In this document: positions 9,758 through 45,437 of the stretch, piece by piece
Numbering within the stretch: the first letter of the stretch is position 1
How the letters are laid out: each line of letters starts with the position of its first letter
Sequence record: OR062945.1
From: Escherichia phage 308Ecol101PP
DNA: 64,000 nt
Reading direction: 5' to 3' (one strand)
Translations under genes and position numbers: made by a program
Notes under the pieces: model-generated
Seen by the model: only the letters and a program-made list of their open reading frames with translations
What the model was told of the DNA's origin: nothing
Database searches by the model: none

Positions 9758-10393
9758 ATGAAAACTACTCCTATTACTATCGCTATTGACGCAATCATAA
9801 AACAAGCTTCTTCTTTGGCCGCTATGGCCAAAGTAATTAGTCAAAACCCTGCTCGTTATAATGCTATTCTAGAAACTCTTCGACGCCCAGGACTTAGTAA
9901 TTATGAAAGCCGAGTAATTATTACAGGTGTTGGTAAGAATGCTAATATTGCAACTAAAGCTTCTGAGACATTTGCTTCACTTGGTATCCCGAGTATGTAC
10001 TTGAACACTGGGCATTATTCTCACGGTGATGCAGGATTCATTGCGCCTAATGATGTGTTGATTCATATTAGTCGTTCTGGTAAAACTGAAGAAATGATAG
10101 GCGTGGCTAAGCATCTTAAAATGATTCGTCCGAACGTCAAACAGATTCTGTTGCATTGTAACCCGGACATTCCACAAGAATACGAAGCTCTTTTTGATTA
10201 TACGTTCTGTACAGGCATCGCAGTAGAGGTTGATGAGAATTCTCTGGCTCCGACCATGTCCACTACATTGTTGTTAGCGCTTATCGATACGTTTGCTATC
10301 AACCTTTCGTCTGAACGTGGATTTACCTCTAATGACTTCCTTAAGTTCCACCCTGGTGGTGCACTAGGTGCCATGTTACGAGGCGAACAATGA
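9758..10393 (+). CDS. SIS-domain sugar-phosphate isomerase, KdsD/GutQ-type (arabinose-5-phosphate isomerase-like), no CBS domains
   Basis: 211 aa; motifs TGVGKNANIATKASETFASLG, HGDAG, SRSGKTEE typical of KdsD-type SIS domains; not a T4 gene. Confidence 0.7.
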   Translation: MKTTPITIAIDAIIKQASSLAAMAKVISQNPARYNAILETLRRPGLSNYESRVIITGVGKNANIATKASETFASLGIPSMYLNTGHYSHGDAGFIAPNDVLIHISRSGKTEEMIGVAKHLKMIRPNVKQILLHCNPDIPQEYEALFDYTFCTGIAVEVDENSLAPTMSTTLLLALIDTFAINLSSERGFTSNDFLKFHPGGALGAMLRGEQ

Positions 10394-10574: not shown

Positions 10575-12260
10575 ATGAAAAAAGCTGTTATTCTTGGTGC
10601 TGGACTGGCAACTCGTTTGTATCCAATAACGCATCATATTCCTAAGGTGCTTGTTAACTATAAACAAGACACTATTCTGAGCAATTTGTATACAATTTAT
10701 TCTGACCTTGGCGCAGATGAAATTATTGTAGTAGTTCATTCAAAATTTGCTGAAACTGTTCGAGCTTATTGTGAGCAAGAAGGGTTCAATGTGACTATTC
10801 GTACAGTTGATGAAGCGTATGGTTCTGCTTATGCTCTTGCTAAATTGCACAAAGATTTAGACGGCCATAATGTAATTGTTAACTGGTGTGATATTATTCC
10901 TGATTTTGGTTCGTGGTCTTGGAATGTTAACGCAATCTATGTTAAGGGTGACGAATGTCGATATAATTTCGACGGTGAAAATATCACTAATGTAGGTTCA
11001 ACAGGTGGTAATGTTGTAGGAATTTATCAGTTCAAAGACTGGGAATTCTATATGGGTTCTACTGATGAGGAAATTCATGAATACTGCAAAGGACGTGATT
11101 TCGTAGAATTCCTTTACGGCAGCGCATTCAATAAATCAGAGCTTATGAATCTAATTGATTTAGGTGATATGCCTAAACTTGAAAAAGCTCATGAAGTTCG
11201 TGAACTTAATCGTAGTTTTAATGCAGTTGAAATTGGTGAAGAAACTGTAACTAAATTCGCATTAACCGAACAGGGCCGAGCTCTTCAGAAAGATGAGATT
11301 TCATGGTATCTTAAAGTGAAATCAGATTCAGTTCCTCAGTTAGTTTCTGTTAATGAAAATAACTTTGAAATGGAACGCATTAAAGGTAAGCCGGCATTTG
11401 AATATATTAAATCCAAATCAAGTCTTGCTCGTCCACAAATTGTTGATGCAATTTTAGATGCACTGAAATTCAGCACAGACACTTATTTTGTAAGTCCTGA
11501 AACTGTTCGTCGTGATTTCACTAAAGAATTCTATACTAAAGTTATTGATCGTTGTGAAAGTATTCAACCATTGATTGATTCATTTGGTAAAATCACACAT
11601 GTGAACTACACTAAGATTGGGCGTCTGAAGCCAATGTTGAAACAAGCTTTAGAACACCTTATTCGTTATCATAACCGTTCTCAGGGACAGTACTCTGTTA
11701 TTCATGGTGACCCGAACTTCAGTAATACTATGATTACTGATAATGGTGAAGTCAAGTTTATCGACCCTCGTGGATATTTTGGTGAAACCAAGATTTATGG
11801 GCCAAAATTGTATGATGAAGCTAAAGTGCTTTACGCTGTTTCAGGTTATGATGAATTCAACGCTAATCCGACTTGGGGACAGTTTACTATTGATGAAACA
11901 ACTTGTAATGTGACTATTAACATCAATCCGTTAGTTTACAAATATGGAAAGATGAGTTCGTTTAACGAGTATCATCATTTGGCAGTGGCAATTATCTGGA
12001 TTGCATTAGGTGGTTATTTCAAGAATAATCCACTTAAAGCGGTAGCCGCATATTATAAAGGTATGGAACTTCTGACTAAGCAATTACGTAATATGGGCCG
12101 TGTACTTCAGGACGGCACTATTAGTTATGATGTAGCAGAACCTGTAACGGCTACTCTGATTACAAAAAATCCTGGTAAATGGGTACTAACTGATAAAGAA
12201 ACTGGTGTTTCTTATCGTCCAATCGGTGGCGATATCACTCATCAATGGGAACGAATCTAA
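10575..12260 (+). CDS. bifunctional protein: N-terminal sugar-1-phosphate nucleotidyltransferase (RmlA/GalU-like) fused to C-terminal APH/choline-kinase-like sugar kinase
   Basis: 561 aa; N-terminal GAGLATRLYPIT (RmlA signature G-x-G-T-R-L-x-P-I-T) ; C-terminal HGDPNFSNTMI...IDPRGYFG (Brenner motif plus DxxG of kinase-like phosphotransferases). Confidence 0.7.
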   Translation: MKKAVILGAGLATRLYPITHHIPKVLVNYKQDTILSNLYTIYSDLGADEIIVVVHSKFAETVRAYCEQEGFNVTIRTVDEAYGSAYALAKLHKDLDGHNVIVNWCDIIPDFGSWSWNVNAIYVKGDECRYNFDGENITNVGSTGGNVVGIYQFKDWEFYMGSTDEEIHEYCKGRDFVEFLYGSAFNKSELMNLIDLGDMPKLEKAHEVRELNRSFNAVEIGEETVTKFALTEQGRALQKDEISWYLKVKSDSVPQLVSVNENNFEMERIKGKPAFEYIKSKSSLARPQIVDAILDALKFSTDTYFVSPETVRRDFTKEFYTKVIDRCESIQPLIDSFGKITHVNYTKIGRLKPMLKQALEHLIRYHNRSQGQYSVIHGDPNFSNTMITDNGEVKFIDPRGYFGETKIYGPKLYDEAKVLYAVSGYDEFNANPTWGQFTIDETTCNVTININPLVYKYGKMSSFNEYHHLAVAIIWIALGGYFKNNPLKAVAAYYKGMELLTKQLRNMGRVLQDGTISYDVAEPVTATLITKNPGKWVLTDKETGVSYRPIGGDITHQWERI

Positions 12261-12646
12261 TGCACCGTGTAAAAAACATGCTTAATCTTTGTTTTGATGT
12301 CGATGATTGTATAACAGAGTGGAATAACAATCGTGATTACGTGAACTTCAAACCAGACGTCGAAATGGTGTCTGCCATTAATGCCCTGTATGATGCAGGG
12401 CATACCATAACGCTTTACACTGCTCGCGGTATGAAGTCAGTAGGTCCTGGTCGTATAGCAATTGACATTCTCCCAAGTCTGATTCAGAACTTGGCAAACA
12501 TTGGATTGAAGTACCATAATTTGCTAACACATAAACCAGTATATGATTGGATTATCGACGACAAAGCTATGCGTCCTGACGAATTCAAAGCTCTTATGAA
12601 TAAAGGCGAATTCGAAACATTTAAATCATATAAACCGAATCTATAA
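12260..12646 (+). CDS. small cap-less HAD-superfamily phosphatase-like protein
   Basis: 128 aa from ATG 12260 (TAATG overlap; ORF track starts at 12245); motif I FDVDD, motif II LYTAR, Lys (HKP), motif IV WIIDDK. Confidence 0.55.
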   Translation: MHRVKNMLNLCFDVDDCITEWNNNRDYVNFKPDVEMVSAINALYDAGHTITLYTARGMKSVGPGRIAIDILPSLIQNLANIGLKYHNLLTHKPVYDWIIDDKAMRPDEFKALMNKGEFETFKSYKPNL

Positions 12647-12692
12647 TAATTTAAGTAAGACCTGCAAAAACCATCGCATCAATTAACGTGGG

Positions 12693-13868
12693 ATGCAAAA
12701 AAAAAAAATGAATACTTTTAAAATCGGAACGAATTTTGATTTAGCTCTTCTTGATAAAATCGTAGAGCTCAATAAAACTTATCCTAATAGCTTGATAAAC
12801 GAAGTATACGGCTCTACAAGAGAAATGGCTTTTGTAGCAGCCAGACCTGATTTTAGGCTTCCTGACGTTGACAAAAAGATGTTAGAAGATTACGTTAAAC
12901 GTTGTAACGAATTAGGTATTTGCTTTAACTATACACTCAACACGATAAATCCTGGTTCAAAAAGAGAACTAGTTGAGTGGAAGAAGAAAGCTATTCAGGA
13001 TTATGTTCAGTATCTTTGGTCAATAGGCGTATGGCGTATTACTATCGCTAACCCTGTTGTTATGGAAATTGTTCGTGAAGTCAATAAAGACATTGAGATT
13101 GAAGTTTCAACAATTCTACATGTCGATGCTGTAACTCAAATCAAATACTTGCATGACCAATATAATATCAAAAAGGTCTGCTGTGGAATTCATAAGAACC
13201 GTTCAGTTTCTTTCCTGAAACGTGCAGCAGAGTTTTGTAATAAGAACAATATAATATTTGAAGTTCTTGTAAATGAGTTCTGTTCTAATGCTGGTAAAGG
13301 GTACACAACACATTGTAGCTATCGTGACTCTTGCTATATTTTCCATAGCACCGATGTTACAGTAGATGATGCCAAATCCTTAAATGGATATCCAATGCAA
13401 CACTGTATTAAAGCTCGTGATACAGATCCATTTAACTGGTTGAGAACTCGTTTTGTTCGTCCTCAAGATTTGAAACTTTATAATGATATTGGTATCACTC
13501 AATTTAAAGTTTCAGGACGTACAGGTAGCACCGACTACATTTTAAAAGTTCTTGAAGCTTACGCTTCTGAAAAGTTTGAAGGTAATTTGTTGGAATTGTG
13601 GAAGCCTTTAGAGACCATTTTCACTCTTGAAAATGAGACTGAGTTTTCACATACGGTAAATATTGAAACCTCTTTGTTAGACGGCTTTTTAGAAAAAAGG
13701 TGGTTCAAACATCCAGATTTCGATTGTGCTAATGAAATCTGCGGGACGACGTGTACATATTGTGAAAGATATTATAAACGTCAGTTATCTAAAAATGGGT
13801 TATCAGAAAACTCTATATCTATTATTGATATAACTAACTCTGATGACGCTTTGAGGTACCCAGAATGA
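12693..13868 (+). CDS. U32-family (peptidase U32 / UbiU-UbiV / RlhA-like) putative Fe-S protein
   Basis: 391 aa; U32-like blocks (ICFNYTLNT; EVLVNEFCSNAGKGYTTHCSY; FKVSGRTGS resembling the K-I-E-G-R motif); C-terminal CxxxCxxC (CGTTCTYC); alternative start ATG 12708 after an A12 run. Confidence 0.55.
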   Translation: MQKKKMNTFKIGTNFDLALLDKIVELNKTYPNSLINEVYGSTREMAFVAARPDFRLPDVDKKMLEDYVKRCNELGICFNYTLNTINPGSKRELVEWKKKAIQDYVQYLWSIGVWRITIANPVVMEIVREVNKDIEIEVSTILHVDAVTQIKYLHDQYNIKKVCCGIHKNRSVSFLKRAAEFCNKNNIIFEVLVNEFCSNAGKGYTTHCSYRDSCYIFHSTDVTVDDAKSLNGYPMQHCIKARDTDPFNWLRTRFVRPQDLKLYNDIGITQFKVSGRTGSTDYILKVLEAYASEKFEGNLLELWKPLETIFTLENETEFSHTVNIETSLLDGFLEKRWFKHPDFDCANEICGTTCTYCERYYKRQLSKNGLSENSISIIDITNSDDALRYPE

Positions 13869-14026
13869 TTTCTAGAAAAACTTTTAACCACCAACTTAAC
13901 GAAGAGATTTTGACTATTAAAATTAACAGCAACGAACAAATTCTTAAAAAGGCCCTTATGGGCCTGTTTGAAACTAAAGCGGCTAAAGTGATTAAAGAAA
14001 CCTGTTCAACTAGAATACTACGCTGA
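13865..14026 (+). CDS. small hypothetical protein (53 aa)
   Basis: ATGA overlap with preceding stop; below ORF-track cutoff. Confidence 0.3.
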   Translation: MISRKTFNHQLNEEILTIKINSNEQILKKALMGLFETKAAKVIKETCSTRILR

Positions 14027-14146: not shown

Positions 14147-14863
14147 ATGGGAAAACATAACACAATGAAATATATTAAAGCCGCAGATTTTCAATCCGCA
14201 TTTAAAGCTGTCAATCGTGAAATTTTAGAAAATCCACAGTTCGTTACTGATTCTCGTATTGGACGTTGTAATGAAATTGGGTCTATGACAGTAGTTGTTG
14301 ATACCCCTTCATCATTCAAAATGACCGACCCACGTATTAATCGCATCTCTTATGAATATGCTGAAGATTTCTGGAAATTTATGATTTCTGGTGGTACTGA
14401 TGCAAAAGAAGCATTTAAGGCATATCCTAACGTTGCTAAATTTATTTCTAAACCTAAATCAGACGCTTTGCCTGCAAACTTCAACACTTTCTATGGTCCA
14501 CGAATTGCGGCCCAGTTACCAGCTCTTCTCAAAGAACTTAAAGAGAAACCTAATTCACGAAGAGTTGTGTTTCAAATTCTTGAAAGTTCAGATCAGGCTT
14601 TGCTTGATTCGGATGAAACGCTTGAATATCCATGTACTGACTCAGTGACTTATTATATTCGTGATGGTAAGCTTTATACCCACTGTCATATGCGTTCTCA
14701 GAACTGTGCTGTTGTTATGCAGTTGGATTTTTATCTCCAAGGAAAATTACTTCATTATATCGCTAACGAATGTGGTGTAGAAGTTGGTGATTATACTCAT
14801 ACCATGGTAAGTGCCCATGTGTTTGAACGTGATTTTGATTATGTTAAAGGATTCCTTGACTAA
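14147..14863 (+). CDS. 42: thymidylate-synthase-fold deoxynucleotide hydroxymethylase, gp42 (dCMP hydroxymethylase) homologue
   Basis: 238 aa; NSRRVVFQ, EYPCTDSVTYYIRDGKLYTHCHMRSQN, VSAHVFERDF align with T4 gp42/TS active-site blocks as recalled; T4 gene order. Confidence 0.7.
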   Translation: MGKHNTMKYIKAADFQSAFKAVNREILENPQFVTDSRIGRCNEIGSMTVVVDTPSSFKMTDPRINRISYEYAEDFWKFMISGGTDAKEAFKAYPNVAKFISKPKSDALPANFNTFYGPRIAAQLPALLKELKEKPNSRRVVFQILESSDQALLDSDETLEYPCTDSVTYYIRDGKLYTHCHMRSQNCAVVMQLDFYLQGKLLHYIANECGVEVGDYTHTMVSAHVFERDFDYVKGFLD

Positions 14864-15762
14864 TGGCTATTTTCCGCGTACCTATCTTGAGTATGCGGTC
14901 TTATGAAACTGGACAGTATGCTATCCTTAAGGATGGCAACTTCCAACTTCATTTGCACCGTGCTAATCCGGGTGATGTGATTACATATCCACGTAATGCA
15001 TCTGATATTAAAGAATGCGAACGTCTTTTTCCAGAATTTAAGTTTGTTCCATTATGGTATAAAGATAACGCGTATAACACTCGTAAATATTTCTGGTCTG
15101 AAAATGAATTTGTGGTTGATTCATTAATTGCTTATTATGATTGTGATTTTCTAATCACAGATATCACTGGATATGACGGCGCTTTTGATGTGGAATTCAA
15201 TTTCAATATCACTGCAGACCCTAATAAACCACGTTTTTATATTGACGAATTCTTAAAAACCGACATGTTGTCGGTTAATCGTTCACTTCAAACTACTGTG
15301 TTGAATGAACGTCAAAAAGAAGTGCTGGTTAACGCAGGTGCAGATGGTAATAAGATTATCGTAACCCAGAAAGTTATACGTCCTTCCATCATGCAGCGTC
15401 TTGTAGGTGATTTGGCTCCTATTCATCTAGATGGTATTTTTCATCCATTTCGAATTAGTGACCCGTGCTATCGTTTTGAACAAGTGGTTGAATGTGCAAT
15501 TCAATTAGGTCAACCGCTTTATATAACTGATCCAAATAATAGTTTCGACAGAAATAAGTATCCTGAAGAAGCGCTGATTCGAATTTTTAATCCAACTAAA
15601 ACTGAGTACTATCAAATTCTTAAAGGACGTCCGAAGATTCAATATTTCGAAAATCCTGAAGAAGTATTCCATCCAGGTCTTGGTGAGTTCATCTACTTTA
15701 ATGCTTTAATTTCTTCGCCGTATAATATACCTAAATACGAAGATGTCGTAATCGAGGAATAA
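14863..15762 (+). CDS. hypothetical protein in the position of T4 beta-glucosyltransferase (299 aa), no recognisable similarity to beta-gt
   Basis: TAATG coupled start after gene 42 homologue; no motif recognised. Confidence 0.5.
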   Translation: MAIFRVPILSMRSYETGQYAILKDGNFQLHLHRANPGDVITYPRNASDIKECERLFPEFKFVPLWYKDNAYNTRKYFWSENEFVVDSLIAYYDCDFLITDITGYDGAFDVEFNFNITADPNKPRFYIDEFLKTDMLSVNRSLQTTVLNERQKEVLVNAGADGNKIIVTQKVIRPSIMQRLVGDLAPIHLDGIFHPFRISDPCYRFEQVVECAIQLGQPLYITDPNNSFDRNKYPEEALIRIFNPTKTEYYQILKGRPKIQYFENPEEVFHPGLGEFIYFNALISSPYNIPKYEDVVIEE

Positions 15763-25543: not shown

Positions 25544-25570
25544 GGAATCCTTCGGGGTTCCTTTTTTTTT
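25544..25570 (+). terminator. intrinsic terminator, UUCG hairpin plus T9
   Basis: GGAATCC-TTCG-GGGTTCC followed by TTTTTTTTT. Confidence 0.8.
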
Positions 25571-45403: not shown

Positions 45404-45437
45404 GGGAGCTTCGGCTCCCTTTTGTGCATTTTTTTTT
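45404..45437 (+). terminator. intrinsic terminator, UUCG hairpin plus T-rich tract
   Basis: GGGAGC-TTCG-GCTCCC followed by TTTTGTGCATTTTTTTTT. Confidence 0.75.

Follow-up and report, generated by a model that had tools for sequence, protein, structure and literature searches.

The window analysed in this study, a stretch of DNA of 64,000 nucleotides, belongs by sequence comparison to an RB69-like T4-type coliphage (Mosigvirus). A 4-kb query from the window retrieved 154 phage records at 95-99% identity, all of which were RB69-like T4-type coliphages of the genus Mosigvirus, and the window was 97-98% identical to RB69-like phages over these 4 kb. The longest ORF of the locus in a program-made ORF list extends from 12693 to 13868 and encodes 391 amino acids with the N-terminus MQKKKMNTFK. 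This ORF is the homolog of RB69 ORF050c (gp50), and its residues 99-291 matched the Pfam family PF01136 (Peptidase_U32) with 42.4 bits against a gathering cutoff of 22.4. Searched against PDB chains by sequence, the U32-like protein gave no match.

The U32-like gene sits inside the arabinosyl-5-hydroxycytosine DNA-modification cluster (Table 1). RB69 DNA was reported in 2026 to carry arabinosylated 5-hydroxycytosine, for which the ThyA homolog gp48 makes 5-hydroxy-dCMP and gp51, gp52:53 and gp55 make UDP-arabinose; the U32-like gp50 was listed solely as a putative "sugar or heterocycle reductase" (PMC13326640). The gp51 homolog lies upstream, its end being 61 nt before the ATG at 12708.

Several minor differences from the RB69 annotation were observed in this cluster. 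The ORFs at 10575-12260 (561 aa) and 14863-15762 (299 aa) are single in the window and are split in the RB69 reference into ORF052c/053c and ORF046c/047c. These splits have been ascribed to sequencing errors (PMC13326640), with which the unsplit ORFs of the window agree. The gp51-like gene is annotated among relatives as a CDS of either 402 nt or 387 nt, the alternative starts falling within 12245-12262; the 387-nt version starts at 12260 with a one-base overlap with the stop codon of the upstream gene, and the ATG at 12245 is without a Shine-Dalgarno (SD) sequence at normal spacing. In addition, the small ORF after the U32-like gene (13865-14026) has 53 aa and RB69 ORF049c is annotated with 240 nt (79 aa), which may represent a length difference or another start or stop.

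Table 1. Features at and around the A tract of the U32-like gene (positions in the window)
Feature	Position	Strand	Basis or remark
SIS-domain arabinose-5-phosphate isomerase homolog	9758-10393		neighbour gene
Bifunctional nucleotidyltransferase/kinase	10575-12260		neighbour gene
RB69 gp51 homolog, HAD-type phosphatase, UDP-arabinose pathway	12245..12646	+	function from PMC13326640
Sigma-70-like promoter match TTTAAA-16-TATAAT	12620..12647	+	10/12 positions; overlaps stop codon of upstream gene
Conserved leader motif CCTGC-N-CATCGCATC	12661..12680	+	unique in window
Weak SD-like GGGA (GAG in most relatives)	12690..12693	+	anti-SD pairing -4.0 kcal/mol
Upstream ATG, conserved in sequence, not the obligatory start	12693..12695	+	frame in relatives
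A12 homopolymer, length-polymorphic 5' leader/spacer	12697..12708	+	direct reading; A4-A14 in relatives
U32-like gene, RB69 gp50 homolog, 386 aa, MNTFKIGTNFD	12708..13868	+	Pfam PF01136; CDS of relatives
Thymidylate-synthase-like enzyme	14147-14863		neighbour gene

Results

Position of the A tract

Direct reading of positions 12693-12710 gave ATG C AAAAAAAAAAAA TG. As the original prediction had claimed, 12 A residues are present and end in an alternative start, since the in-frame ATG at 12708 takes the final A as its own first base. The prediction had also placed the run across codons 2-5 of the longest ORF; this was correct for codons 3-5, while codon 2 contributes only its bases 2-3 and the run takes in base 1 of codon 6 as well. 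The A12 tract is the longest homopolymer of the window, the runners-up being two T9 runs, both of which are intergenic. No other run of at least 9 lies in the coding regions of the window. Dinucleotide-preserving shuffles yielded 0.21 A12 or T12 runs per window, with at least one such run in 16 of 100 shuffles. The length of the tract is therefore unremarkable by composition alone, and the tract stands out instead for its location, immediately against a start codon.

Start codon of the U32-like gene

The ATG at 12693 is in frame with the U32-like gene in the window for the sole reason that 12 is a multiple of three, and it is out of frame in the relatives bearing A4, A5, A7, A8, A10, A11 or A14. 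In every out-of-frame relative checked, the 386-aa ORF from the second ATG was intact; for relatives with A7 and A11, residues 1-386 were 99-100% identical. Moreover, a CDS of 1161 nt from the second ATG is annotated in AV117, SF, moskry, vB_EQ1, mar007P3, ChristianSchoenbein, HX01 and Mizar, and the RB69 and JK36 records have the CDS annotated from the upstream ATG. In Mizar, which has an A6 tract with both ATGs in frame, the CDS was annotated from the downstream ATG despite the in-frame upstream one, and a 3-nt ribosome binding site was marked at 361-363 of the locus. Its position identifies this site as the GAG, 9 nt ahead of the downstream ATG.

More distant relatives, in which the U32-like protein is 80-88% identical and its gene stands in another upstream context, possess canonical SDs (AAGG, AGGT, AAGGA or AGGTGA) at normal spacing. 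Their N-termini (MNVFK, MNTFK, MKNTFK or MHKSTFK) align with the ATG at 12708, and some distant relatives carry two to four extra residues ahead of the conserved TFK. In another group of relatives, the leader AAAAGAGATGAAAATG consists of a weak SD-like GAG, six bases that incidentally contain an ATG, and then the start. Furthermore, the second-ATG product MHKSTFKVG of the locus L003 is identical to the product of L009, whose start is unambiguous.

Because the ORF from the second ATG is intact where the first is out of frame and the relatives with canonical SDs start there, the comparison indicates that the ATG at 12708 is the true start of a 386-aa protein. The ATG at 12693 would then be an incidental triplet of the leader, and the N-terminus MQKKKM would be an artefact of choosing the longest ORF.

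Tract length among relatives

A direct reading of the orthologous site in 25 relatives, taken from GenBank, IMG/VR and metagenomes, gave tracts of 4 to 11 or 14 A residues between near-identical flanks (Table 2). Among the window (A12), AV117 (A11) and EP02SG (A14), there were no SNPs in 340 flanking nt. In addition, the tract length in 82 non-redundant GenBank records was inferred from the length over which a 161-nt or 155-nt query aligned. Lengths inferred in this way were off by one in two records (OZ035759 is really A11 and phiE142 really A7) because the neighbouring A5 run is A6 there, and a sample of the sequences was checked by direct reading for this reason. Sequencing errors of plus or minus one in the homopolymer could underlie some of the differences among records. 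The neighbouring run, at 12666-12670 in the leader (CTGCAAAAACC), is itself a second small site of slippage.

Table 2. Length of the A tract in relatives, by direct reading and by aligned span
Tract	Relatives read directly	Records inferred (of 82)
A4	L002	
A5	L150, L151	5
A6	RB69, Mizar, L149, L157	15
A7	phiE142, mar007P3, ChristianSchoenbein	26
A8	vB_EQ1, HX01, L152	20
A9	JK36	7
A10	moskry	5
A11	AV117, OZ035759, SF, L148	2
A12		1
A14	EP02SG	1

All three length classes modulo 3 were common, and 23 of the 82 lengths (about 28%) were multiples of three. This proportion is close to the one third expected if the tract were free of frame constraint, as it appears to be, and far from the 100% that would be required if the ATG at 12693 were the start. 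Furthermore, the length co-varied with linked haplotypes: CGAG occurred with A4-A8, TGAG with A7-A11 and TGGG with A11-A14. The length therefore appears to be inherited and to have grown stepwise along a lineage; this linkage speaks against sequencing noise, and equally against a very rapid randomisation of length.

Runs elsewhere in the window

Downstream of soc, the T9 run at 25562-25570 supplies the U-tail of an intrinsic terminator (GGAATCCTTCGGGGTTCC + T9), with a promoter-like GTTTACA element after it. Its length varies as well, p000y and NHEP29 having T7 and MRostami-2023e having T11. Long non-coding A/T runs of Mosigvirus are thus polymorphic in length generally, with the broadest range found in the U32 leader. 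The second T9 run (45429-45437, in the region 45405-45437) sits between a terminator-like hairpin (GGGAGCTTCGGCTCCC + TTTT), which it closely follows, and a promoter-like GTTTACA...TATTAT site.

Shine-Dalgarno spacing

For the ATG at 12708, GGGA at 12690-12693 gave the best anti-SD pairing (-4.0 kcal/mol) and is separated from the ATG by 14 nt; the spacing measure of the survey script itself gives 13. The 54 other ATG-initiated ORF starts of the window had a median of -5.8 kcal/mol, mostly at a spacing of 3-7 by the same script's measure, and the U32-like gene is an outlier in SD distance among them. At 12693, GGG abuts the codon with zero spacer, and nothing there is usable as an SD. A canonical SD, taken as anti-SD complementarity over 4 nt or more at 5-10 nt ahead of the start codon, was absent for both ATGs, in agreement with the expectation that neither start has a clear one.

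Counted from the SD-like triplet, the spacer measures 7 nt in L002 (A4), 9 nt in RB69 (A6), 15 nt in the window (14 nt from GGGA) and 17 nt in EP02SG (A14). Relatives with short tracts (A4-A6) have only GAG, 7-9 nt from the start. At 12690-12692, GGG replaces GAG solely in genomes whose tracts are among the longest (A11-A14); the constraint on the element could have relaxed after it had moved beyond reach of the start codon, or the two changes could simply be linked.

Leader RNA

The promoter-like match TTTAAA-16-TATAAT is a possible transcription start for the leader. The count of promoter-like matches in the leader region was not above that in shuffles, and TATAAT (12642-12647) is kept in several relatives. 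In a partition-function model of the presumed leader, which assumes a transcription start predicted only from this match, the upstream AUG was mostly paired (unpaired probability 0.02-0.20), the downstream AUG was about 0.73 unpaired, and the unpaired fraction of the 25 nt around the start rose from 0.56 at A4 to 0.80 at A14.

Two elements of the leader are kept where the U32-like protein is only 83-88% identical and the sequence between them is replaced, namely CCTGC...CATCGCATC and GAGATG (GGGATG in the window). GAGATG is conserved across all relatives having this leader type. The CAUC of the leader motif can pair with GAUG at 12692-12695, and the alignment fold gave a 4-bp stem whose pairing was invariant, with no covariation. 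Single-sequence folds of the leader had z-scores from -1.3 to +1.2, which were not significant against shuffles. A leader hairpin hiding the upstream AUG and the SD-like triplet was not adopted in view of these weak folds and the lack of covariation. A scan of IMG/VR with CCTGC-N(1-10)-CATCGCATC returned more than 100 unrelated chance matches and no usable leaders. The GAG and the upstream ATG are kept in distant relatives too, a conservation that would be unnecessary in a mere spacer, and they may have a role in RNA pairing with CAUC or as a protein-binding site. The conserved leader elements could act as a structured RNA, as a binding site for a protein or as an element close to the promoter.

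Discussion

The A12 tract is very likely a non-coding, slippage-prone leader that separates a weak SD-like triplet from the genuine start at 12708. The ancestral arrangement would have been an SD-like GAG, a spacer of 6-7 nt with an incidental ATG, and the start ATG, as in GAGATGAAAATG and GAGATGCAAAATG. In the RB69-like lineage, the A run of this spacer would have gained and lost residues step by step through strand slippage in DNA replication, with A4 to A14 as the outcome. Runs of at least 9 A or T are known to be slippage-prone for bacterial RNA polymerase and to be avoided in coding regions (PMC1088944); the absence of any other run of this length from the coding regions of the window is consistent with such avoidance. 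The host RNA polymerase may thus slip on at least 9 A here as well, producing mRNAs of heterogeneous leader length. Since the run ends in the start codon, slippage of neither kind would shift the frame of the U32-like gene, and the length of the leader alone would change.

In the window phage, the SD-like element, at 14 nt, would be too distant to act as a normal SD, so that initiation at 12708 probably proceeds through the open, unstructured A-rich leader, as an SD-poor start with docking of the ribosomal protein S1 type. A graded, quantitative effect on expression through leader length or SD spacing is possible and putative. The original prediction that the tract is prone to polymerase slippage was borne out at the evolutionary level by the A4-A14 range among near-identical relatives. 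Its suggestion of stochastic expression found no support as a frameshift or an on/off state, all A residues but the last being upstream of the probable start, and the tract would provide no stochastic switch for the DNA-modification pathway. The alternative that it had allowed, a poor annotation start, was supported by the upstream ATG being out of frame in about 72% of related genomes and by the canonical-SD relatives starting at 12708. The comparative evidence thus points to an ordinary slippage-prone spacer together with an over-long ORF call, rather than an on/off switch. A literature search on the tract, on homopolymers in Mosigvirus and on RB69 promoter maps around ORF050c found nothing specific.

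Other explanations of the tract were considered. The variable length might be an adaptive device, in which the tract is a heritable, mutable dial for the dose of the U32-like enzyme, kept variable by selection on the output of DNA hypermodification in different hosts and acting through the distance from SD to AUG and the openness of the leader. The wide range at one site between identical flanks, the inheritance of length along the series CGAG, TGAG and TGGG rather than as noise, the increase of modelled accessibility with tract length, and the position of the gene in the arabinosyl-5hoC cluster, which is relevant to the evasion of host defences, all agree with this idea. However, the T run of a non-coding terminator shows the same polymorphism, so that neutral drift by slippage is sufficient and is favoured over a dedicated regulatory device; moreover, the literature search found no paper on the tract, and the function of the U32-like protein is putative. 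Selection for a dial is accordingly considered unlikely. If it were real, the dial would let RB69-like phages quickly retune DNA hypermodification on new hosts, and the tract would amount to a contingency locus of a translational, spacer-length type in a lytic phage. A coding tract with phase variation, where the ATG at 12693 is the start, the run encodes Lys and slips of one or two bases switch the gene off and on, would fit the window itself, in which both ATGs are in frame and the longest ORF begins at 12693, as well as the annotation of RB69 and JK36 from the upstream ATG. In most related genomes, though, that ATG is out of frame, with the gene intact from the second one in all of those checked, the G-rich triplet has no spacer to the ATG at 12693, the homologs with canonical SDs start at the second ATG, and the folding model leaves the upstream AUG largely paired. 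This interpretation was rejected on the frame statistics (23 of 82 lengths being multiples of three) and, being largely refuted by the comparative data, is given very little credence.

The upstream AUG might instead open a regulatory mini-ORF or serve as a second initiation site that modulates initiation at 12708. Three frame classes follow directly from the sequences: tracts with 6, 9 or 12 A would give an N-terminally extended protein, those with 5, 8, 11 or 14 would stop at a UGA that shares bases with the start codon (AUGA), and those with 7 or 10 would run 13 nt into the gene. The conservation of GAGATG in all relatives of this leader type is in keeping with such a role, which nevertheless seems improbable, as the upstream AUG is without usable SD spacing and predicted to be paired, and as all three classes are common in nature, so that no class is required. 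Finally, the run length of the window, or the whole polymorphism, might result from homopolymer miscalls in sequencing or assembly, considering that homopolymers of at least 10 are error-prone on several platforms, that EP02SG (A14) is an UNVERIFIED record, and that no database record carries exactly A12. Against this, the lengths obtained in many laboratories are graded and segregate together with linked SNP haplotypes, five records of the mar005P1 group share an aligned length of 156 nt (A7), one of them, mar007P3, being read directly as A7, and A11 was obtained from four independent sources. An artefact on this scale is extremely improbable, and a possible error of plus or minus one in the window itself would leave the conclusion unchanged.

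With the tract taken as a non-coding spacer, the main value of these results is in annotation. The start of the U32-like gene in RB69-like phages should be moved to the second ATG (386 aa, MNTFK...), and the RB69 and JK36 records would carry a spurious MQK(K)n extension. In addition, the hypervariable tract lends itself to the typing of very closely related Mosigvirus isolates, and the natural series A4-A14 with GAG or GGG could be used to study how translation in T4-type infection responds to SD distance and A-rich leaders.

The tract is a further example of a hypervariable homopolymer in a 5' leader, which is a known kind of element. Simple-sequence length polymorphism in general is among its closest counterparts. 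The A runs of T4 that are Streisinger-type frameshift hot spots, in rII and lysozyme, become more variable with increasing length. The present tract resembles them in being an A·T homopolymer of a T4-type genome that changes in single-base steps, but those hot spots lie inside coding sequence and give frameshift mutants, whereas A12 lies in a leader, so that its length changes are frame-neutral and have accumulated as natural polymorphism (A4-A14). Contingency loci are another related system, known from poly-G tracts in receptor-binding genes of Campylobacter phages and from bacterial poly-G, poly-C and poly-A tracts in ORFs or promoter spacers. As in those loci, a hypermutable homopolymer, longer than the approximately 7 units at which repeats become slippable, stands near a host-interaction gene and differs in length among otherwise near-identical genomes. 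Unlike them, A12 is neither in an ORF nor between a -35 and a -10 element, lying downstream of the only promoter-like -10; there is no on/off state, and the control terminator T run behaves like the tract. The S1-dependent initiation regions, which are A/U-rich and SD-poor, share with this leader an unstructured A-rich stretch 5' of the AUG and the absence of an SD at functional distance; they differ in that dependence on S1 and the A run is presumed here and that relatives with short tracts keep a weak GAG at 7-9 nt. Programmed transcriptional slippage is known from the A9 of Thermus dnaX, the A9 or T9 of IS elements and Shigella mxiE, with a threshold of at least 9 A or T in the transcribed sense strand (PMC1088944). 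The A12 tract exceeds this length on the sense strand and, if transcribed by the host RNA polymerase, would be expected to yield mRNAs of heterogeneous length. However, it precedes the start codon, so that there is no alternative-frame product to reach, and it neither lies in coding sequence nor leads to a conserved truncation or alternative-frame product: the other frames from the ATG at 12693 stop after 4-7 codons in relatives.
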